From the sequence record MN655998.1: a stretch of 64,000 nucleotides of DNA; one strand, 5' to 3'. Positions within the stretch are counted from its first letter, which is position 1, and each line of letters starts with the position of its first letter. The position numbers and the translations under genes were made by a program. Below, one piece after another: positions 3,387-24,019 of the stretch. The notes under the pieces were generated by a model, which saw only the letters and a list, made by a program, of their open reading frames with translations, did not search any database and was not told the DNA's origin. This stretch comes from Escherichia phage E26.

Positions 3387-3662
3387 TCAGGACATTGCCC
3401 GTTTGAATGCGTCCATTATAACAGTGTTATTTGGCTTGTCAACACGTTTTTGAACTTTATTTTTAAATTTTTTGTTGATGTGGTGTTTACGATAAACAAC
3501 CTTTTCACGGTTGGCGTAAGCCTCGCGTGCGTCTTTTACCATCAACCATGCCTTAGCCGCATCTTGTCCGCTGATCCCGCCAATCTTCTTAGCAATATCA
3601 ACAAAATTAAGACCGTGGTCTTCGCGTAGCATGTAAACCATTAACGCTGTTTTCTTGTCCAT
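3387..3662 (-). CDS. hypothetical protein (start placed at internal Met MDKKTALM)
   Basis: Track ORF 3387..3770 overlaps upstream ORF by 108 nt in another frame; internal ATG gives a 1-nt overlap with the stop of the 3662..3859 ORF. Confidence 0.4.
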   Translation of the reverse strand: MDKKTALMVYMLREDHGLNFVDIAKKIGGISGQDAAKAWLMVKDAREAYANREKVVYRKHHINKKFKNKVQKRVDKPNNTVIMDAFKRAMS

Positions 3663-3859
3663 CACTTCGCCCCATTGACGATTAACAGGATAGTGATCAG
3701 TACCGGAAACTGGATCATGACAGTACCAAAAAACCGGATAAACGCATTTTCCGACTTCCACACATGACATGCGACTAGCTGATAGACCATTGTTGCAACC
3801 AAAGCCAGAAAATACATCTCGATTGGTGCTTCTTTGATCAATCGTACAATCTCATTCAT
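3662..3859 (-). CDS. small membrane protein
   Basis: 65 aa with two hydrophobic helices. Confidence 0.4.
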   Translation of the reverse strand: MNEIVRLIKEAPIEMYFLALVATMVYQLVACHVWKSENAFIRFFGTVMIQFPVLITILLIVNGAK

Positions 3860-4021
3860 ACTTCACCTCATACATTCATAAACACAACAACGAATAATAC
3901 AGTAACAGTTATCAACGCCATTTTCAACCCCATATTCATAATATTTTCTTCGCCTCACGATGACAGTAGCATGTCGATGCGTGCCATTATAGGCATCTAA
4001 ATCGCTCTGTCAAGCACTAAA

Positions 4022-4050
4022 AACAAAAAAGCCACCCCGAAGGATGGCTG
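4022..4050 (-). terminator. Rho-independent terminator (minus strand) after hoc
   Basis: Minus-strand RNA GCCAUCC-UUCG-GGGUGGC followed by UUUUUU. Confidence 0.6.
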
Positions 4051-4060
4051 ATAGATTTCA

Positions 4061-5275
4061 TTAAGCAGGATGCGTTTCACGAATGCATAGAACTCGCTCT
4101 AACGTATCTCGGTCCAGTTTATGTAAATCTTTGGAATGATACATGAAACCATTGCGAGATTCCATGCAAGTGCAATCACTATATTTTTCTTCCGCTGCCG
4201 CGATTGTCTCCAGATCTTTGGCGTACTTGCTGGTAGAATAAACTTCTCGGTCACGCCACTCTAACCCAGCCTCATTGAATTTAACAATCTCGTCAAATAC
4301 CCACCATCCAATGTAGATAAATGAAGTTTTGCGCCACGGGATCGGGTGTACGTAACGAAACATTTTAACAACTTCCATTGAACATTTTCTACTTGTACTT
4401 GTTGCAACTTCTACTGTTTCATTTTCGATCTGTTGATATAGTTTAGCAACACACCAGAATTTGGCTGTGTCATCGTAAGTAGCACTCTCTTTGAACAGAT
4501 GACCGTCTGGAGTGATAGAAAATCCTTCCTGTGCTTCGCCGACCTCATTACCGATCAGAGTCGGTGACAGTTGCCCTTCGCGCTGCAAATACCAGTTATG
4601 TTTGATCGTCAATTCAGGCATACCGCTAGAATCGCCTACAATGTCCTCTGACACAACATAATTAAGTAAGATCTCATTACCTAGTGCCACGGTCTTTGAT
4701 TCCACCACATCCTGTTCTACGTTCATTGTTGCCAGCATGATTTTAGTCGATGCGCTATTGGCTGAATCTTCCGACTCACCCCACACTTTTACAGTATACA
4801 CGCCGTTTTTATCTGCTGTAAATTTTTGGATTGTAATATCCTGTTTTGTGTCTATAACTTCTTCGCCCTTACTCCAACTATAATGTAGTTCATAGTTGTC
4901 TGATGGAGTCTTCCCACCAGAAAAATTTACTGTTGCATGTAATTCTACGTCTGTTTGTGATGATACGTAGAAATGCTGCGGTTCGGTGATATTTACGATT
5001 AATTCCGCTTCTTCCATGAGGAAAACTTCAGATTCTACTGATGTCGTCGTATCGGTATCTTGTACCGTTACTTTATAGCTACCCGCATTTTCACTTGTTG
5101 CGCCTTCTACAGTTAGCGTAGCTGTGTTATTTTCATGCGGTTGGTCGTCTTTTGTCCATGTATATGTCAAATTGCTGGGTAATGGTTCGTCACCCTCTAC
5201 AGTCGCCGTTAAGGTGAAACCATCGCCAGCAAGAAAACATCTTTTGTCAGATTTAATTGATACTGTGAAAGCCAT
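4061..5275 (-). CDS. hoc: highly immunogenic outer capsid protein Hoc
   Basis: 404 aa; Ig-like N-terminal repeats; C-terminal capsid-binding motifs YVHPIPWR, GWWVFDEIV, ESRNGF matching T4 Hoc. Confidence 0.85.
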   Translation of the reverse strand: MAFTVSIKSDKRCFLAGDGFTLTATVEGDEPLPSNLTYTWTKDDQPHENNTATLTVEGATSENAGSYKVTVQDTDTTTSVESEVFLMEEAELIVNITEPQHFYVSSQTDVELHATVNFSGGKTPSDNYELHYSWSKGEEVIDTKQDITIQKFTADKNGVYTVKVWGESEDSANSASTKIMLATMNVEQDVVESKTVALGNEILLNYVVSEDIVGDSSGMPELTIKHNWYLQREGQLSPTLIGNEVGEAQEGFSITPDGHLFKESATYDDTAKFWCVAKLYQQIENETVEVATSTSRKCSMEVVKMFRYVHPIPWRKTSFIYIGWWVFDEIVKFNEAGLEWRDREVYSTSKYAKDLETIAAAEEKYSDCTCMESRNGFMYHSKDLHKLDRDTLERVLCIRETHPA

Positions 5276-17468: not shown

Positions 17469-19520
17469 TTACATTTTAAATTTATCTGGCATTGCGTCTA
17501 CAGATACCAGATCAGCGATAAGCTGACGTAGAGTTGCCTTATCTGCTTTCTTACGTTCGGTTTTAGCTTCGCTAATGAAGCTGGAGAAAGACAGGTCAGA
17601 AGCAGGTTTAACAACACCTTCACGGATGAATGCATCACCGTCCGCGATCATCTCGCCAGATTCTTGTAATGCTGCCAGTTCATTTTTGTTCATAATATGT
17701 GCCTCAATGTAATAAGTTTCTTGTGAATCCGTCGATGCCGTAGCACGAGTTACCGTATCAAAGGATAACACAACACCGCGAGGAAGTAAAATCTCGCATT
17801 CTTTGTAAGCAAATGCTTTGTTACCTACTGGCAAGACAGGGATGTTTTCCGCGCCAGCAATGGAGAAAGCAACATTAGCGCCACCTTCACCGCGAGAGCC
17901 AGCCATAGAATCAACACCAGCAACGGCACTAGCCACGTTTGCATTCCAGCCGCCAAAAATGTTAGGTGCAAGGGAAGTGCTCACATAGTTTTTAAAGTAA
18001 AACGCTTTTTGCTTACGTGCAGTTTCCCACATTTGCGACCGGAAGTCCATACCACGATACAGAATAGTACCCGGATCAAGTTTAACTCCATAGTTGGAGA
18101 AGGCATTATCCAGTGCATCGCACATCTTGACCAATTCTTCTGGATCTGCGATGCCTTCAAACTCTTCCAGCTTACGATCAGTTAGGAAGTTGTTCATATT
18201 GATGTATGCTGCATCGGCATATTCGCTCAATACAAAACCTTCCGCGCCAGGCAGATCAAGATCAATATCTGCCATCATTTCACCCATGTTGCTAGCAATT
18301 GCTTCAAACATACCGGAAGCAACATTACGTAGGGCATCGGTTTTAATCTGTGTGATGTGACTACGCAGCATTTCAGCTTTTACATCTGCTGGCATAGACT
18401 GGTCTACTCGATCCATTGCCAGGGCGGTGATCTTGTTTTCGAATACTTCCTCGCTCATGATTTCTTTTAAGCGTTTGATTGATGCTGCGATAACTTCCGC
18501 AGACAACGGATCATATTGATCCTGAACTTTTACCAGTTCGCTTACTGCGTATTTTGCATCGGCTTCGCTTTCAAAAATAGTACGCATGAAACCATAGCGA
18601 GTGATAATATCACTTGTCCAGTCATTCAGAGAACGGGCGGTTGAACGTTCTAAGGCTTGACGATCAATCAGAGTATTAAACTGTTTCTTAGGTTCGGCTT
18701 CGGTGATATCTTCTTCTGGTTTAAGATTAATTTTTTCTGGATGATTCACGTAGTCGCTGTTATATGTCGCTTGAGTTTTCAGCATTTCTTCTTTAGTCAA
18801 ACGAGATTTAGCCGCTACGCGTTGTTCTGCTTCCGCGTTTCGTTCTTCTTCTGACACAAGACTAGCCGCATATGCCTCATCTTTAGTCAGAGATTCACCA
18901 GTAGCCTTAGATACCCAGCGATCACCTAAATCACTTTCTACTTTAGTGAACAAGGATTCATCAAGTTTAATCCCTTTAATCTTATCAATCGCCATCCCGC
19001 GACGCTTGACAACAACTAAAGCGATCTTTTTGCTGGTCATTACTTCCTGCTGGAATACTTCAAACTTCGGTGTACGACGCACCAAACGCTCTATAACGCG
19101 CTTAACCAGTTCGGTCTTACCTTTCATGCGGGATACGTTAAAACGGAACATAACAGCGTCTAATTGCGCTTTACGGGCTGTTTCCATAACCACATCAAAA
19201 GCACTTGCCATAACTGCAATCGGGTTATCGCCTAGACCATTTTTAAGCTGTACAATACGACCGCTTTTGTTCATTTCGCACAGTACAACATGTGCGGTTT
19301 TGTCACCCATACGAATGATTTTAGGTGTTTTGTTGGTGAAGTTACAAAGACGGACAATCACATCTTTATCGCGTGTCTGTACTGCAAAAAGCTGTTTAGG
19401 ATTCTGCTTAGGCTTTAAGCACTGTACCGGAGCAATACTGCCAAAGTTTTCTTCCTCTTCCGTCAACAGCCATTTCTCGAAAGATTCAATCATTAGATCG
19501 TCGATTTCTAAGTTAAACAT
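17469..19520 (-). CDS. alt: Alt ADP-ribosyltransferase
   Basis: 683 aa; ART motifs LYRGMDF, YVSTSL, ECEILLPRG; size and position as T4 Alt. Confidence 0.85.
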   Translation of the reverse strand: MFNLEIDDLMIESFEKWLLTEEEENFGSIAPVQCLKPKQNPKQLFAVQTRDKDVIVRLCNFTNKTPKIIRMGDKTAHVVLCEMNKSGRIVQLKNGLGDNPIAVMASAFDVVMETARKAQLDAVMFRFNVSRMKGKTELVKRVIERLVRRTPKFEVFQQEVMTSKKIALVVVKRRGMAIDKIKGIKLDESLFTKVESDLGDRWVSKATGESLTKDEAYAASLVSEEERNAEAEQRVAAKSRLTKEEMLKTQATYNSDYVNHPEKINLKPEEDITEAEPKKQFNTLIDRQALERSTARSLNDWTSDIITRYGFMRTIFESEADAKYAVSELVKVQDQYDPLSAEVIAASIKRLKEIMSEEVFENKITALAMDRVDQSMPADVKAEMLRSHITQIKTDALRNVASGMFEAIASNMGEMMADIDLDLPGAEGFVLSEYADAAYINMNNFLTDRKLEEFEGIADPEELVKMCDALDNAFSNYGVKLDPGTILYRGMDFRSQMWETARKQKAFYFKNYVSTSLAPNIFGGWNANVASAVAGVDSMAGSRGEGGANVAFSIAGAENIPVLPVGNKAFAYKECEILLPRGVVLSFDTVTRATASTDSQETYYIEAHIMNKNELAALQESGEMIADGDAFIREGVVKPASDLSFSSFISEAKTERKKADKATLRQLIADLVSVDAMPDKFKM

Positions 19521-19560
19521 TTTATATCCTCTAGTTGATAACCTATAAACCTATATTTAT

Positions 19561-19582
19561 GAAAAGGGGGCTTAACGCCCCC
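19561..19582 (-). terminator. Rho-independent terminator (minus strand)
   Basis: GGGGGC-TTAAC-GCCCCC hairpin with U-run on minus strand. Confidence 0.55.
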
Positions 19583-19587
19583 ATTTA

Positions 19588-19800
19588 TTATAATGCACCA
19601 TCGAGCAATTGCTCTAATGTGTATCCTGAATAGTCTTTTTCAATCAGGATATATTTTCCTACTCGTTTAATACAACCGCGCATTTCAACGTATTCTGCGT
19701 AGTTGATGGTGCGAGTTGTTCCATCTTCTAGCAAAGCAGTACCGATTTCGTTAATGCGGTCATAAGTTACGTCGGTAATGATGATTTCGATGTTAGCCAT
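19588..19800 (-). CDS. small hypothetical protein
   Basis: 70 aa; preceded by promoter cassette and SD; N-terminus MANIE shared with ORF 21684..21935. Confidence 0.55.
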   Translation of the reverse strand: MANIEIIITDVTYDRINEIGTALLEDGTTRTINYAEYVEMRGCIKRVGKYILIEKDYSGYTLEQLLDGAL

Positions 19801-19836
19801 TTGATACTCCTTAGTAGTTCGTTTCGGTATGGGTGT

Positions 19837-19865
19837 ATTATGATATACACCCTCTGTTATGTCAA
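19837..19865 (-). promoter_or_regulatory. PeSL-like early promoter cassette 1
   Basis: Minus strand TTGACA-N17-CATAAT; palindrome GGGTGTAT..ATACACCC across the -10. Confidence 0.55.
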
Positions 19866-19871
19866 CAACTT

Positions 19872-20051
19872 TTAGAACATTTTTGAAATTAATTCTGCTT
19901 TGATTTCGCAGAGAACATCTAAAGATTTCTCGTCACCCGCTTTTGCTGCTTCTGATTGCATTTTTGAAATGGCTTCAACGTAAGTGCAATTATAAGCCGC
20001 TTGAACTTTAGCGATTGCGATGATTGCCGATTCGATGGTTAAGTGTTTCAT
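19872..20051 (-). CDS. small hypothetical protein (59 aa)
   Basis: Manual translation MKHLTIESAIIAIAKVQAAY...; SD GGAGAATCAA; not in ORF track. Confidence 0.4.
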   Translation of the reverse strand: MKHLTIESAIIAIAKVQAAYNCTYVEAISKMQSEAAKAGDEKSLDVLCEIKAELISKMF

Positions 20052-20083
20052 GTTTGATTCTCCTTTCGTTTCGGTATGTGTGC

Positions 20084-20112
20084 ATTATAGGGGATCACCG
20101 ATCCCCTGTCAA
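20084..20112 (-). promoter_or_regulatory. PeSL-like early promoter cassette 2
   Basis: TTGACA-GGGGATCGGTGATCCCC-TATAAT; perfect palindromic spacer with two GATC sites. Confidence 0.6.
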
Positions 20113-20676
20113 CAACTTTTTTGAATTATTTTTTAATTGCTCATCTTGTAATAGAGCAATAACATGCTGGCGATGTTCTTCCGATTGAGGCACACCGAAA
20201 AAGTTTGTTTTGTAGAAATATTCTAATCGATCTTCTCGTGTGCTCTCTTCCATCATGATCGCGGGTAGTCCGAGATTTCGGAAACGTCGCTTTTCTGCTG
20301 GCGTAAAATCACTGTAATACAACATAGAATCATCATTACCAGCAATGCTAAACTCATCTTTCATAAAGGAGAATATTGCGTTTAAACGCTGTTTACCGTC
20401 CACGATTTCGATCTCATAGCGAGAGCCATCATCAATCTTAGCCATTGCGATAGCACCAACCGGAAAATCATTAATCAGGTTTTCGATAAACATACGTTTG
20501 TTTTCGGTGTCCCATACCAAAGGACGCTGATAATCTGGGTTCATGTTGATATAGCCATCTTCTAACCACGCCTCATAAACAGAGATGACAAAGTTTTTAG
20601 TATTGGTATAGTAACGGCGTTTAGGCGTTAAACGGTTCATGTTATAGTCTCCTGAATGGATCATCACGTAAATCAA
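20095..20676 (-). CDS. DUF262 (ParB-like / GmrSD N-terminal domain) protein
   Basis: 193 aa; signature motifs PDYQRPLVW and VDGKQRLNAI. Confidence 0.7.
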   Translation of the reverse strand: MIYVMIHSGDYNMNRLTPKRRYYTNTKNFVISVYEAWLEDGYINMNPDYQRPLVWDTENKRMFIENLINDFPVGAIAMAKIDDGSRYEIEIVDGKQRLNAIFSFMKDEFSIAGNDDSMLYYSDFTPAEKRRFRNLGLPAIMMEESTREDRLEYFYKTNFFGVPQSEEHRQHVIALLQDEQLKNNSKKLLTGDR

Positions 20677-20971
20677 TATCTTTTAAGAACTCATCCCATG
20701 AATGGCGGATATTGTTCTTAATTCTCCAGATAAGCGCAGGGATTGAACGCTCTCCCATCTGGAAGTAAGGATCATATGATCCATATGCCCAATATGCTAC
20801 TACAATTCCACAATCAGCGCAATAATATTCTATTTCACTTGCTGGCGACCAAAGTCCATCAATATGATCGGTGATCCTGCTTTCGATGTTATGGCTATGG
20901 CAATCAGGGCAACGGATGCAATGACCTTGTTTATCGTAATTTGACGTTAGCGAATACTTAAACAATCTCAT
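20642..20971 (-). CDS. zinc-ribbon protein
   Basis: 109 aa; CIRCPDCHSH and CADCG Cys pairs; overlaps both neighbours. Confidence 0.5.
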   Translation of the reverse strand: MRLFKYSLTSNYDKQGHCIRCPDCHSHNIESRITDHIDGLWSPASEIEYYCADCGIVVAYWAYGSYDPYFQMGERSIPALIWRIKNNIRHSWDEFLKDIDLRDDPFRRL

Positions 20972-21687
20972 TATAGATCCTTATTTGCTTCAAATACTGC
21001 CTTTGCGAATCCTCGCGGGGTAAGTGACCTTATAGTCTTTGTTTTCGTTCCTTTCCCGCCTAGCTTAGAATGCTGTTTACTGTACCCTTTATTAATCTGC
21101 AACGGTTTCTTTTCTGGCATTATAAAGCCTTGTCCGGTCCATAAGCAAGTCCTTTTCGGGTACATATCACGGGCGGCAATATACTCAGGAAAAGTAGGAT
21201 GTTTATCATCTTCCGGCAAATAACCGCCATATTCCCACGGATGGAACATATAATCAGGCTTACGCCACATGCTAGAGATAACGCTTACAGGATTCTCTAT
21301 CATGTAGGGAACTCCTAGCCATTCACCCAAATAAGCGGTTATTTTAGCTGCCCGTACATCATGAACTTGAATCAATGGTCCTTGCTCTCGTTTCTTTCGT
21401 TCAAAGTGTGCAGCGCCACTAACAGCTAAATTGGTGCACGGTGGGAATGCAAATATAATATCCGGTTTCCCCCATTCAAGGTCCATTGCTCTTTCTAGCC
21501 AGTTCAAATCAATCCATGTGTTTACATATGTAATGTTTGGATGTTCAAATCGGGTATTATATTTTTTGTATGTACCGTGGTCGCCATCGTCAGCATTAAA
21601 GCAGATCACCTTATGACCTGCTTTAGCCCATTCTAACCCCATTATCCCCGATCCGTCAAAGTTGCAGAATATTAATTTTTGTTTCAC
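20971..21687 (-). CDS. minimal C5-cytosine methyltransferase-like protein
   Basis: 238 aa; motif I-like FDGSGIMGLE, motif IV-like FAFPPCTNLAVSGA, motif VI-like MIENPV, motif IX-like RSLTPRGFAKAV in correct order and spacing. Confidence 0.6.
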   Translation of the reverse strand: MKQKLIFCNFDGSGIMGLEWAKAGHKVICFNADDGDHGTYKKYNTRFEHPNITYVNTWIDLNWLERAMDLEWGKPDIIFAFPPCTNLAVSGAAHFERKKREQGPLIQVHDVRAAKITAYLGEWLGVPYMIENPVSVISSMWRKPDYMFHPWEYGGYLPEDDKHPTFPEYIAARDMYPKRTCLWTGQGFIMPEKKPLQINKGYSKQHSKLGGKGTKTKTIRSLTPRGFAKAVFEANKDL

Positions 21688-21935
21688 GCTGCCCCCATTG
21701 GTTTGATAGTAACAGAATCTAAAAGACCTTTGTTAGCCAGTTCGCGGCAAGTTTTCAGATCCGCAACTTCCCAGCCAGCCGCAATCAGGTTATCAATCAG
21801 GCTGTTAGCAATTTCTTCGCTCATGAAAGAGCACTGTTTGCCGATGGTGTAGCGTACACGCTGTAATTTCAGTTTACGGAAGCCTTTAACGTTCAGGTCT
21901 TTAGCGATTTTCTTTGCGGTTTCGATGTTAGCCAT
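21684..21935 (-). CDS. small hypothetical protein
   Basis: 83 aa; preceded by promoter cassette and SD. Confidence 0.55.
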   Translation of the reverse strand: MANIETAKKIAKDLNVKGFRKLKLQRVRYTIGKQCSFMSEEIANSLIDNLIAAGWEVADLKTCRELANKGLLDSVTIKPMGAA

Positions 21936-21975
21936 TGTTTGATTCTCCTAAGTGGTATCTCGTCTTGATGGTTGT

Positions 21976-22004
21976 ATTGTAGGGGAGTTATCCTCCCCTG
22001 TCAA
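21976..22004 (-). promoter_or_regulatory. PeSL-like early promoter cassette 3
   Basis: TTGACA-GGGGAGGATAACTCCCC-TACAAT; palindromic spacer. Confidence 0.55.
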
Positions 22005-22018
22005 CACTTTTTATAAAA

Positions 22019-22186
22019 TTATTTGTTAATTTCCGGTGCGTTGCTTGGATAGTAACCTTCTTTAACTCCGAGGTATTTCGCAACCATCCCTACAATCTTC
22101 TGTGCTACTACAATGTCAAATTTCAGATAATCTTCACCGTAGGTTTCAATGATATATGCTTCACATGCTGCTTTAGTCTCGAACAT
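22019..22186 (-). CDS. small hypothetical protein (55 aa), paralog of 25287..25454
   Basis: Manual translation MFETKAACEAYIIETYGEDYLKFDIVVAQKIVGMVAKYLGVKEGYYPSNAPEINK; not in ORF track. Confidence 0.5.
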   Translation of the reverse strand: MFETKAACEAYIIETYGEDYLKFDIVVAQKIVGMVAKYLGVKEGYYPSNAPEINK

Positions 22187-22219
22187 TTTGATTCTCCTAT
22201 TTCGTTTCGGTATGTGTGT

Positions 22220-22248
22220 ATTATAGGGGATCTCCCGATCCCCGTCAA
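22220..22248 (-). promoter_or_regulatory. PeSL-like early promoter cassette 4
   Basis: TTGACG-GGGATCGGGAGATCCCC-TATAAT; palindrome with GATC sites. Confidence 0.6.
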
Positions 22249-22263
22249 CAACTTTTTTTAAAA

Positions 22264-22545
22264 TTATTCGTGATTAGTTTCGATGTTGTGCATTTTGCAC
22301 CAGTTCAGCCAATCGCCCAGTTCTTGATAGTTGATGCTTTTATCTGCTGCCATCGTTTTTGTCTTGATACCCATATGTGCGTTATGAGTAAGCATTTTTA
22401 CAGTGAACTCGATTTTATCGCCTTTAGCTTTAACATCAACCAGTTTGGTCCACTGGCTACCAGCACCGCGAATGTTCATGCCAACGATGTTTCCGATGTA
22501 TGCTTCTTTGTTTTTCAGGATTTCGGTTGCTTTGATGAATTTCAT
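22264..22545 (-). CDS. small hypothetical protein
   Basis: 93 aa; promoter cassette and SD upstream. Confidence 0.55.
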   Translation of the reverse strand: MKFIKATEILKNKEAYIGNIVGMNIRGAGSQWTKLVDVKAKGDKIEFTVKMLTHNAHMGIKTKTMAADKSINYQELGDWLNWCKMHNIETNHE

Positions 22546-22578
22546 TTTTGATTCTCCAGTTCGTTTCGGTATGGGTGT

Positions 22579-22607
22579 ATTATGCTATGTTCTTACTTTG
22601 GTGTCAA
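22579..22607 (-). promoter_or_regulatory. PeSL-like early promoter cassette 5
   Basis: TTGACA-N17-CATAAT. Confidence 0.5.
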
Positions 22608-22615
22608 CAACTTTT

Positions 22616-22885
22616 TTAGATATTTTCAGAAATAAATTTTAAAACTTGACGTAAATGTTTCTCATCTTTGATAGTCGCCGGAAGTTCTTCTTTTACTTCC
22701 TGTGCAAGATAGATATTTCCGTTCCAAGTGAAAGATCCGTCTTCGTTTACGCGATAGCTGAACATCCACTCGCAATCATTTTCGATTTCATATACACACA
22801 GAAGAGTGTAATCTTCAAAGCTATTGAGTTCAAGGTCGAAGCCGTGACGTTTTGCAAAGTTGGTAGTGGTTTTAGTCAGTGCCAT
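22616..22885 (-). CDS. small hypothetical protein
   Basis: 89 aa; promoter cassette and SD upstream. Confidence 0.55.
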   Translation of the reverse strand: MALTKTTTNFAKRHGFDLELNSFEDYTLLCVYEIENDCEWMFSYRVNEDGSFTWNGNIYLAQEVKEELPATIKDEKHLRQVLKFISENI

Positions 22886-22925
22886 TGTTTGATTCTCCTA
22901 AGTGGTATCTCGTTTCGATGTGTGT

Positions 22926-22954
22926 ATTATGCTATAGGCGTGTTCTGGTGTCAA
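22926..22954 (-). promoter_or_regulatory. PeSL-like early promoter cassette 6
   Basis: TTGACA-N17-CATAAT. Confidence 0.5.
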
Positions 22955-22978
22955 TTCTTTTTTTAAAATTTTATGCAA

Positions 22979-23004
22979 TAAAAAAGCCGACGCTAAGGTC
23001 GGCT
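22979..23004 (-). terminator. Rho-independent terminator (minus strand)
   Basis: AGCCGAC-GCTAAG-GTCGGCT hairpin; U-run on minus strand. Confidence 0.55.
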
Positions 23005-23011
23005 AATAAAA

Positions 23012-23320
23012 TCATTTAGACAAATAATCATTCTGTGCAATCCGGTCAGCATGTTCCGGCGTTACGTCAATTGCAATCACTTTAACGCGTGCTTTCTTGC
23101 GACCTGGGTTTTCTCGTAGCCAGTGCGTGTGACCGTACAAATTTTTATACTTTGATGCTTCTTCGAAGGTACGGATCGGACCTGGGTAATCAGCGTAAAG
23201 GATCTCTAGATCTTCGGTGATGTAAAAATATACATCGTAATTGCTGTTCTCTAGCTTAAGCAGAGACTTTCGGAACATTGGGAGATTTTCGCGGGTAAAT
23301 TCAAAGATATTATCTTTCAT
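23012..23320 (-). CDS. HxHW-AVDV family protein, copy A
   Basis: 102 aa from internal Met MKDNIFEF; motifs VYFYITEDL, HTHW, IAIDV; track N-terminus reads through the terminator hairpin. Confidence 0.55.
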   Translation of the reverse strand: MKDNIFEFTRENLPMFRKSLLKLENSNYDVYFYITEDLEILYADYPGPIRTFEEASKYKNLYGHTHWLRENPGRKKARVKVIAIDVTPEHADRIAQNDYLSK

Positions 23321-23343
23321 AGTATTATCCTCAATAGTTGGAT

Positions 23344-23366
23344 GAAAAGGGGGGCTTAACGCCCCC
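23344..23366 (-). terminator. Rho-independent terminator (minus strand)
   Basis: GGGGGGC-TTAAC-GCCCCC hairpin. Confidence 0.5.
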
Positions 23367-23371
23367 ATATA

Positions 23372-23659
23372 TTAAAACAGTCCTTCCTGTACACCGTAAT
23401 AGAGTTCGTCGCTGATAATTTCATTAATGCGACGGTGTGCATATTCCTGATTTGCGAAGTTGTCAGCAAGTTCTACTTTAGTTTCTCCGTCATGAGTCCA
23501 TTTAGTGATAACTTTACCATCTGCAAATTTGAAGTTGAACTCTTTAGCTACCGCATCGCGTACCAGACGTGCAAACTTATTGTTGCGGATTGCATTGTCG
23601 GTTTCGTGTGCAGCGTGAGCGAATTTGTTAACTTTCAGAGTGATAGTAATGTATGCCAT
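23372..23659 (-). CDS. small hypothetical protein (AKEFN motif)
   Basis: 95 aa; shares AKEFN-containing segment with ORF 26672..26983. Confidence 0.55.
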   Translation of the reverse strand: MAYITITLKVNKFAHAAHETDNAIRNNKFARLVRDAVAKEFNFKFADGKVITKWTHDGETKVELADNFANQEYAHRRINEIISDELYYGVQEGLF

Positions 23660-23705
23660 AATTTGATTCTCCTAGTTAGAAAGTGTATCTCGTTTCGATG
23701 GGTGT

Positions 23706-23734
23706 ATTATGCTATACACCCGACCTTATGTCAA
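23706..23734 (-). promoter_or_regulatory. PeSL-like early promoter cassette 7
   Basis: TTGACA-N17-CATAAT; palindrome GGGTGTAT..ATACACCC across -10. Confidence 0.55.
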
Positions 23735-23740
23735 CACTTT

Positions 23741-24019
23741 TTATAAAATAATTTTTTGATATTTTTCTATGATGTTCGTGTAAGTCACATCAACCGCTAG
23801 CACCGTTGCTTCGAATCCACCGTTTAGCCAATGGCTATGGTCATGATCGTGAAAGAAACCAAGACCAGTACGAAGACCTTCTTTATATTCTGCGCGTACA
23901 TTTAGATCATCATCGATAAACAGATAAAACCATGAATTTTTACTAGGATTGATGATACAACCTTTCAGATTAGGGAGAATATCACGACTAAGAATAAACT
24001 TATCACCTACTTTGAACAT
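23741..24019 (-). CDS. HxHW-AVDV family protein, copy B
   Basis: 92 aa from internal Met MFKVGDKF (SD GAGGA); motifs WFYLFIDDDL, HDHDHSHW, LAVDV. Confidence 0.55.
   Translation of the reverse strand: MFKVGDKFILSRDILPNLKGCIINPSKNSWFYLFIDDDLNVRAEYKEGLRTGLGFFHDHDHSHWLNGGFEATVLAVDVTYTNIIEKYQKIIL

Follow-up and report, generated by a model that had tools for sequence, protein, structure and literature searches.

The minus strand of Escherichia phage E26 carries three closely packed genes, for a small protein resembling C5-cytosine methyltransferases, a four-cysteine zinc-ribbon protein and a DUF262 protein, and the locus raises the question of whether they work together or merely travel together. 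The DNA analyzed, called the window below, is a stretch of 64,000 nucleotides (nt) of sequence record MN655998.1. A sequence-only reading of the window had listed three minus-strand open reading frames (ORFs) at 20971-21687 (238 amino acids, aa), 20642-20971 (109 aa) and 20095-20676 (193 aa), all of which are present, and had proposed that they could be one modification, anti-restriction or exclusion system. Another answer seems to us the probable one, namely that the genes belong to an early unit of four accessory genes bounded by promoter-early stem-loop (PeSL) cassettes, that the second gene encodes an orphan C5 methyltransferase of the phage Dcm family, and that the zinc-ribbon and DUF262 genes are independent of it. 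The unit and its boundaries are as follows.

21956..22017, minus strand: upstream PeSL cassette of repeat family D1/D2, with TTGACA, a 17-nt spacer and TACAAT (11 of 12 in the promoter scan, at 22004-21976).

21684..21935, minus strand: 83-aa ORF, first gene of the unit (PHROG 14908), function unassigned, also present in Krischvirus relatives.

20971..21687, minus strand: predicted compact C5-cytosine methyltransferase of the 'Dcm' family, 238 aa, second gene of the unit.

20642..20971, minus strand: four-cysteine zinc-ribbon protein, 109 aa (PHROG 2993).

20095..20640, minus strand: stand-alone DUF262 protein, 181 aa (Pfam PF03235), last gene of the unit.

20064..20125, minus strand: downstream PeSL cassette, the reference copy of repeat family D1, with TTGACA, a 17-nt spacer, TATAAT and a GGGGATCGGTGATCCCC stem-loop (12 of 12 in the promoter scan, at 20112-20084).

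The 2.8 kb around the three-gene locus is 97-98% identical to 56 complete Krischvirus genomes (RB49, Phi1, JSE, GEC-3S, TB34, Ec_Makalu and others), and the source of the window is, as judged by sequence, an RB49-like Krischvirus, a T4-type phage. As had been said from the sequence, the genes lie outside the T4 core. All three are found together at 95-100% identity in 56 of 56 full-length Krischvirus records. This genus-wide co-presence, at 97-99% nucleotide identity, reflects common descent. The methylase family was found by tblastn in 1,515 of 50,697 phage records (Drexlerviridae, Webervirus, Vequintavirinae, N15-like and Vibrio phages, and Krischvirus), the DUF262 family occurs in 301 and the zinc-ribbon family in 90, and all three overlap only in the 56 Krischvirus records.

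The neighborhoods of the two smaller families were also compared, using 70 small-DUF262 loci from IMG/VR (two of them from Krischvirus) and 17 zinc-ribbon loci from IMG/VR plus that of phage 9g (again with two from Krischvirus), with flanks of 5-6 kb. A Dcm-family or zinc-ribbon gene was found within 6 kb at none of the 68 non-Krischvirus DUF262 loci, and a methylase or DUF262 gene near none of the 16 non-Krischvirus zinc-ribbon loci. All-against-all clustering of the neighbors at 74 DUF262 loci (31 sequence groups) detected no shared partner family, and the 50 kb around the DUF262 gene of phage DP yielded no Dcm-like homologue. Thus, a conserved three-gene system beyond the genus Krischvirus is not supported by the sequenced loci. 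The idea of a single co-functional system, in which for instance the partners supply the DNA recognition that the methylase lacks, draws on the coupled or near-coupled arrangement in a single PeSL-bounded unit, on the joint occurrence in the 56 records and on a methylase nearly devoid of a target-recognition region. It has to face the absence of the partners at the non-Krischvirus loci, about 1,460 phage records in which the methylase occurs without zinc-ribbon or DUF262 partners, and the Dcm protein of phage K42, which is active alone when expressed from a plasmid. Since co-presence inside the genus is explained by common descent, we regard the single system as quite unlikely.

The assignment of the second gene comes from motifs, family membership and predicted fold. 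The 238-aa protein has motif I as F10-x-G12-S13-G14 (F10-D-G12-S13-G14, FDGSG), motif IV as P82-P83-C84, motif VI as E131-N132-P133 and a motif IX-like I219-R-S-L-T-P-R-G226, and D60 and K178-R179 are further key residues. Among 26 diverse homologues, FxGSG, DHG, PPCT, ENP, WR, K178, T180, KLGGK and IRSLTPRG are invariant. The C5 motifs I, IV (PPC), VI (ENP) and IX-like, together with the near lack of a target-recognition region, had already been pointed out from the sequence, and the homologues bear this out. The motif VIII-like segment is separated from the motif IX-like one by no more than about 35 well-conserved residues, so that no variable target-recognition domain (TRD) is present. Compared with canonical C5 enzymes of PF00145 (M.HhaI, E. 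coli Dcm, the catalytic domain of DNMT3A/B), the protein is about 90-150 residues shorter, without a variable TRD and without a clear motif X, and its motif VIII reads PK[KR]T rather than QxRxR. PHROG 757, "DNA methyltransferase", covers residues 1-237 (E=7.2e-90), and of the 7,155 homologues nearly all are 225-250 aa long. The AlphaFold model (mean predicted local distance difference test score, pLDDT, 88.7) shows a class I methylase fold nearest to C5 enzymes. In a Foldseek search against the PDB, its top seven matches are DNMT3A/B, with a prophage C5 methylase, HhaI, HaeIII and MpeI also close; structure prediction had been suggested as a check, and its outcome agrees with the methylase assignment.

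A member of this family has been characterized experimentally. The 711-bp dcm of phage K42 (a KarlJaspers/Bas06-like Hanrivervirus) is a trigger of retron Ec86/Eco1, and its loss allows the phage to escape the retron (bioRxiv 10.1101/2023.08.16.553469). When K42 Dcm was expressed alone from a plasmid, it raised 5-methylcytosine (5mC) in multicopy single-stranded DNA (msDNA), as measured by mass spectrometry coupled to liquid chromatography (LC-MS), and triggered the retron; the C82A/E128A/K175A/K176A mutant was inactive, and an AlphaFold model of the protein was superposed on DNMT3A (bioRxiv 10.1101/2023.08.16.553469). The Hanrivervirus herni orthologue, encoded by 711 bp and 56% identical to the window methylase, has C82, E128, K175 and K176 in the numbering of K42 Dcm. 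In its alignment with the window methylase, the equivalents are C84, E131, K178 and R179. Because the residue numbers of the orthologue match K42 Dcm exactly, the window methylase can be placed in the K42 Dcm family. Both are proteins of about 236 aa in PHROG 757 with a DNMT3A-like predicted fold, and both are orphans without a cognate nuclease. They differ in phage family (Drexlerviridae for K42, Straboviridae here), in gene neighborhood, in the K178-R179 pair that replaces K-K, and in the start codon, which in the window copy is a GTG made by a deletion described below. Taken together, motifs, DNMT3-like fold and membership of an experimentally active phage Dcm family mark the 238-aa protein as a minimal enzyme resembling C5-cytosine methyltransferases.

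This also determines how new the locus is. Its key enzyme is not new as a kind, being a member of a phage Dcm family that is already known and has experimental support. Krischvirus records of the RB49/GEC-3S type already annotate all three genes, the zinc-ribbon protein as "hypothetical protein" and the DUF262 protein as "hypothetical protein" or "DUF262 domain protein". The novelty suggested by the sequence-only reading was therefore overrated, since annotations of these genes are years old and one member of the methylase family has been characterized. The locus itself is an annotated accessory operon of a well-sequenced genus, mostly ordinary and not surprising.

Several observations weigh against the picture of an orphan Dcm-family methylase with two independent neighbors. 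First, the 238-aa protein is poorly recognized by general models. The Pfam profile DNA_methylase PF00145, proposed in advance as a check, scores 14.3 bits where the cutoff is 22 and so does not reach its threshold (E=0.028, residues 10-100 only), although PHROG 757 matches from end to end; NCBIfam has no match for the protein, and neither single-sequence nor family-profile searches of PDB sequences matched a C5 methylase. Second, the canonical motif VIII QxRxR is absent, and P-K-[KR]-T is found there (Y-P-K-[KR]-T-C-L-W). Third, the CCWGG specificity of K42 Dcm was assumed from E. coli Dcm and not mapped, and the host was the dcm-plus strain MG1655 (bioRxiv 10.1101/2023.08.16.553469). Fourth, in Krischvirus TB34, which has the same genes, high-performance liquid chromatography/mass spectrometry (HPLC/MS) detects no modified nucleosides, and the DNA is not cut by BrxU, which recognizes 5mC (PMC13390438). 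Fifth, CCWGG is strongly avoided in the window, with an observed/expected ratio (O/E) of 0.42 against a Markov expectation, which would be needless if the sites were fully protected. Finally, room for a functional link, which we rate as secondary, is left by a tight operon that is fixed throughout the 56 Krischvirus records and by the enrichment of methylases near DUF262 genes, described below.

The fourth point limits what the enzyme may do. Since TB34 is unmodified by HPLC/MS, either methylation of the genome is rare or the packaged genome is not the main target. The result speaks against a packaged genome methylated with low specificity, for instance at all cytosines or at CpG, and is compatible with methylation at rare sites. 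There are 29 CCWGG sites in the 64 kb, which would correspond by our estimate to about 0.2% of cytosines if methylated. A further possibility is that DNA cytosine methylation is not what the 238-aa protein carries out in this phage, and that it acts on RNA or nucleotides, transfers another group or is inactive. An HPLC screen designed for hypermodified bases could miss methylation as infrequent as CCWGG sites, and the K42 homologue raised 5mC in DNA in vivo whereas its quadruple active-site mutant did not, with these residues conserved here; we find this alternative very unlikely.

Where the TRD would be, there is a very short and strongly conserved segment, which implies, from the alignment, one fixed specificity for the whole family. 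The counts of other sites in the window show depletion of GGCC (O/E 0.33), CCSGG (0.32) and AGCT (0.66), and GAATTC is observed 0 times against 16.7 expected; GATC is not avoided. Judging by these counts, the phage evidently relies on site avoidance too. The family, without a TRD, is found in about 3% of sequenced phages, which gives the question of its target site a wider interest.

Phage-therapy collections make use of Krischvirus phages, whose cytosine is usually described as unmodified. The Krischvirus SAP has been reported to contain hydroxymethylcytosine (hmC) and glucosyl-hmC and TB34 to be unmodified, though the two are 99.96% identical (PMC13390438). Differences at this locus were considered as the cause and rejected. 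In this 4-kb region, SAP and TB34 differ only by a 79-bp tandem PeSL duplication (SAP locus 1054-1132, downstream of DUF262) and two single-T indels, and there is no coding change in the methylase, zinc-ribbon or DUF262 gene. Our guess is that a mixed lysate would be a simpler account of the SAP modification result.

For the orphan methylase favored here, the following course of events can be proposed. On the analogy of canonical C5 enzymes and of the residues mutated in K42 Dcm, the enzyme would bind S-adenosylmethionine (SAM) through the FxGSG loop, and Cys84 would attack a flipped cytosine at C6; Glu131 of ENP and the Lys178/Arg179 pair would, by the same analogy, help to hold the base. It would be expressed early from a sigma70 promoter and most likely methylate a limited set of DNA sites, an expectation extended from the activity of the orthologue, with the target likewise presumed. 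The benefit would presumably be anti-restriction. The methylase may at the same time expose the phage to methylation-sensing defenses such as retron Ec86/Eco1. Given an orthologue of the Dcm that triggers this retron, the host range of Krischvirus may be shaped by such defenses. The zinc-ribbon and DUF262 genes would be independent accessories which, in Krischvirus, happen to share one fixed operon; the latter would provide a nucleotide-binding domain of the ParB/Srx type without a nuclease, any role of it being presumed as well.

The DUF262 protein matches Pfam DUF262/GmrSD_N (PF03235) with E=3.4e-20 and 73.4 bits against a cutoff of 33.2, while NCBIfam has no match for it. Its residues Y37-Q-R39, E78, D81-G-K-Q-R85 and N146-F-x-G-V-P-Q-S153 are invariant among homologues, including the signatures YQRPLVW and DGKQRL that had been recognized from the sequence. 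PADLOC NsnA and PD-T4-2_A, and also PHROG 1583, were matched over their N-terminal halves only. The AlphaFold 2 model (pLDDT 93.8) has a ParB/Srx fold plus one long C-terminal helix. Its Foldseek neighbors are ParB, PadC, Noc, KorB, BrxU, SspE and sulfiredoxin, at modest E-values of about 1e-3, and the earlier label "ParB-like" is apt in this respect. No nuclease or helix-turn-helix (HTH) domain was found with Pfam, PADLOC, PHROG or the model. In comparison with enzymes of the GmrSD family (Eco94GmrSD, BrxU) and SspE, the protein has the N-terminal DUF262 domain, a DGQQR-type motif (DGKQR) and the ParB/Srx fold in common, but it lacks the C-terminal DUF1524/HNH nuclease half and the linking helical domain of the GmrSD family, with 172-181 aa against about 560-600 aa. 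Because the nuclease half is missing, the protein alone is not expected to be a restriction enzyme. The N-terminal CTPase domains of ParB, Noc and KorB are its top fold matches, but it has neither an HTH nor a dimerization domain, and DGKQR takes the place of GERRxR. From sequence and model, it appears to be a true ParB/Srx-fold domain that stands alone, to be counted neither among the GmrSD enzymes nor among the ParB proteins.

The family of this protein is large and uncharacterized. A word-indexed protein search with the single DUF262 sequence gave 7 matches only, and profile and exhaustive searches were needed; these gave 2,135 matches and 6,117 cluster representatives (E<=1e-3), respectively. 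Most members are 160-190 aa long and nearly all are encoded by phages or prophages; the 301 phage records include RB43-like, KP27-like and Mydovirus phages and ST64B-like prophages. A subgroup of 260-290 aa carries an uncharacterized N-terminal extension, and Pfam detected no domain in the 120-190-aa N-terminal extensions of longer relatives. The nearest phage homologue outside Krischvirus is that of Morganella phage vB_Mm5 (locus positions 3992-4507, 41% identity), alone between nrdD and nrdG. In T4-like phages, the interval between these two genes is a classic hotspot where mobile genes insert.

The zinc-ribbon protein has the four cysteines C21, C24, C51 and C54 and a conserved V-x-YWAYG motif. 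Its 90 phage records consist of the 56 Krischvirus records and of Queuovirinae such as 9g, where the gene lies among replication genes; no methylase or DUF262 gene was found near the Queuovirinae loci. An HNH nuclease was considered for this protein on account of CxxC...DH...CxxC, common to it and 9g gp22, and rejected, as D35-H36 is unconserved and the His is replaced by Q/T/N/K elsewhere. The same motif, recalling HNH in this phage and 9g, together with the GmrS-type domain of the DUF262 protein, would suit a split GmrS/GmrD-like type IV nuclease, made of the zinc-ribbon and DUF262 proteins, with which this phage, its own cytosine being unmodified, would exclude hmC-containing T-even competitors. 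The variability of the D-H pair, the absence of any HNH or DUF1524 match in Pfam for either protein and a co-occurrence restricted to Krischvirus make such a nuclease extremely unlikely.

A broader relation between DUF262 proteins and DNA methylation is suggested by other neighborhoods. In 9 of the 31 small-DUF262 sequence groups, a DNA methyltransferase is encoded within about 2.3 kb on the same strand, in six of the nine within 1.2 kb. These methyltransferases, found by motif and then confirmed with Pfam or PHROGs, belong to several classes: PHROG 757 C5, PF00145 C5, D12 Dam-like, N6_N4, N6_Mtase and PHROGs 799, 56, 6263 and 498. In one IMG/VR locus (L013, 4911-8248), a Dam-like gene lies 206 nt upstream of DUF262 and a PF00145 C5 methylase 776 nt downstream. 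In another (L073, 6380-8847), an N6_N4 methylase is found 40 nt from DUF262, along with a ParB-methylase fusion (PHROG 498), and a third (L060, 8129-9529) also has DUF262 near an orphan methyltransferase. No motif-positive methyltransferase ORFs were found in about 145 kb of zinc-ribbon loci, and the DUF262-adjacent methylases were the only ones in the 64-kb window or in the 50 kb of DNA covered in phage DP. Rough binomial estimates give p = 6e-4 against background and 0.006-0.02 for clustering toward the DUF262 gene within loci, with the limits that groups 2, 4 and 5 share one syntenic methylase, hence are not independent, and that the controls are unmatched by phage type. Seven further DUF262 examples from GenBank have no methylase within 3-4 kb.

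Known systems agree broadly with such a relation. Fusions of ParB-like domains to phage methylases are common, and a DUF262 gene beside a DNA methylase recalls the fused ParB-methylase architecture of phages and plasmids, here as separate polypeptides. DUF262 defense proteins act as sensors of modified DNA, and a phage C5 methylase sets off Dazbog. The proximity of DUF262 and methylase genes is a lead and not a result.

Two versions of the idea can be graded. The general one is that DUF262 proteins are tied to DNA methylation, either as ParB-like, nucleoside triphosphate (NTP)-dependent helpers of orphan methylases or as decoys and shields against GmrSD/BrxU and Dazbog. The several classes of methyltransferase in 9 of 31 groups, the empty controls, the invariant NTP-site motif DGKQR and the modified-DNA-sensing defenses are on its side. 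Within the flanks examined, about three quarters of the lineages, RB43, ST64B, phiM12, DAC23 and Morganella Mm5 among them, have no nearby methylase, and accessory genes gather in islands in any case; neither fusions nor interactions point to a link, Pfam detects no domain in the N-terminal extensions of the longer proteins, and the dependent groups and unmatched controls add to this. We consider this version possible but unlikely. The more specific version, that small stand-alone DUF262 proteins are dedicated companions of orphan phage methyltransferases, acting as NTP-gated clamps which help TRD-poor methylases or as mimics which blunt GmrSD/BrxU and Dazbog, is a doubtful proposal. If it were true, the Dcm-DUF262 pair of Krischvirus would be one case of a general two-component strategy. 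In either case, methylase adjacency above expectation offers a cheap handle on the function of this family.

Near-consensus sigma70 promoters were found on the minus strand at 22248, 22004, 20112 and 19865 (scores 11-12 of 12), with no promoter of similar quality from 22004 to 20112 in the same scan. Because strong promoters flank the interval at 22004 and 20112 and none comparable lies inside, the four genes can be taken as a single PeSL-bounded unit. The cassette at 21956..22017 is the sole strong promoter upstream of the unit by the promoter scan, sigma70-like and of early type, with a G/C stem-loop between its hexamers followed by the Shine-Dalgarno sequence of the 83-aa ORF; the cassette at 20064..20125 is predicted to end the unit and to drive a downstream 59-aa gene. 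The claim of one operon behind a promoter cassette thus holds for a tightly packed unit, but the unit had been drawn too small, as the 83-aa ORF, which directly follows the cassette, was missed.

The PeSL cassettes of RB49 and phi1 have been shown to be strong promoters and terminators, and they mediate the shuffling of accessory ORFs in hyperplastic regions (PMC2839356). The flanking cassettes here resemble them in the consensus sigma70 promoter, the A/T-rich upstream tract, the G/C stem-loop and the Shine-Dalgarno sequence (PMC2839356; PMC4122927). PeSL repeats occur in at least 7 copies within 19817-23749. Unlike most nearby PeSL intervals, which hold a single small ORF, the interval here holds four genes, and five in GEC-3S and TB34.

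The genes of the unit are joined in different ways. The TGA of the 83-aa ORF overlaps the GTG start of the methylase as GTGA. The TAA of the methylase and the ATG of the zinc-ribbon gene have base 20971 in common (CTATAATG; junction ATAATG). The DUF262 gene starts at the ATG at 20640, as in annotated relatives, with an AGGAG Shine-Dalgarno sequence 8 nt upstream, and this ATG lies 1 nt past the zinc-ribbon TAA (junction TAAcATG). Of the two pairwise overlaps previously described, the shared base is thus real, whereas the 35-nt overlap at 20642-20676 is an artifact of the ORF caller, which had taken the farthest TTG as the start.

Two differences from relatives are seen in the window copy. The first is the absence of a 246-nt gene (81 aa), located between the 83-aa ORF and the methylase in GEC-3S, TB34 and most relatives (window 21640-21740 compared with GEC-3S locus 3640-3985). 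The starts of the 81-aa gene and the methylase gene have near-identical stretches of about 25 nt (GTGAAAAGAAAATTAAT... and ATGAAACAAAAATTAAT...). Because the deletion fused the start of the 81-aa gene with that of the methylase, the latter begins here with GTG instead of ATG; phage G2248 has the same short arrangement without the 81-aa gene. The second is a 2-nt insertion relative to GEC-3S and TB34 (20095-20125), which removes the usual TAA of the DUF262 gene. Because the stop is abolished, the reading frame runs on for nine codons, across the -35 box and the stem-loop of the PeSL that follows, and the protein has 181 aa here against 172 aa in most relatives.

The surroundings of the unit are also rich in accessory genes. 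The 19817-23749 region is a dense PeSL array, in which most cassettes flank single ORFs of 55-95 aa of unassigned function (PHROGs 8009, 10521, 20811, 10679). The plus-strand ORFs of the region are short and antisense to conserved genes, and an Rfam search of 18000-24000 on both strands found no structured RNA match. Directly downstream of the accessory array, 17469-19520 encodes a 683-aa Alt-like RNA polymerase ADP-ribosyltransferase (PHROG 802 at 7e-180; Pfam ADPrib_exo_Tox), so that the unit would sit in a hyperplastic region just upstream of the alt-like gene. A bidirectional terminator-like hairpin, GGGGGCTTAACGCCCCC with A/T runs on either side, is present in two copies that are 91% identical, at 19562-19593 and 23346-23377, and one of these follows directly after a 70-aa ORF upstream of alt.

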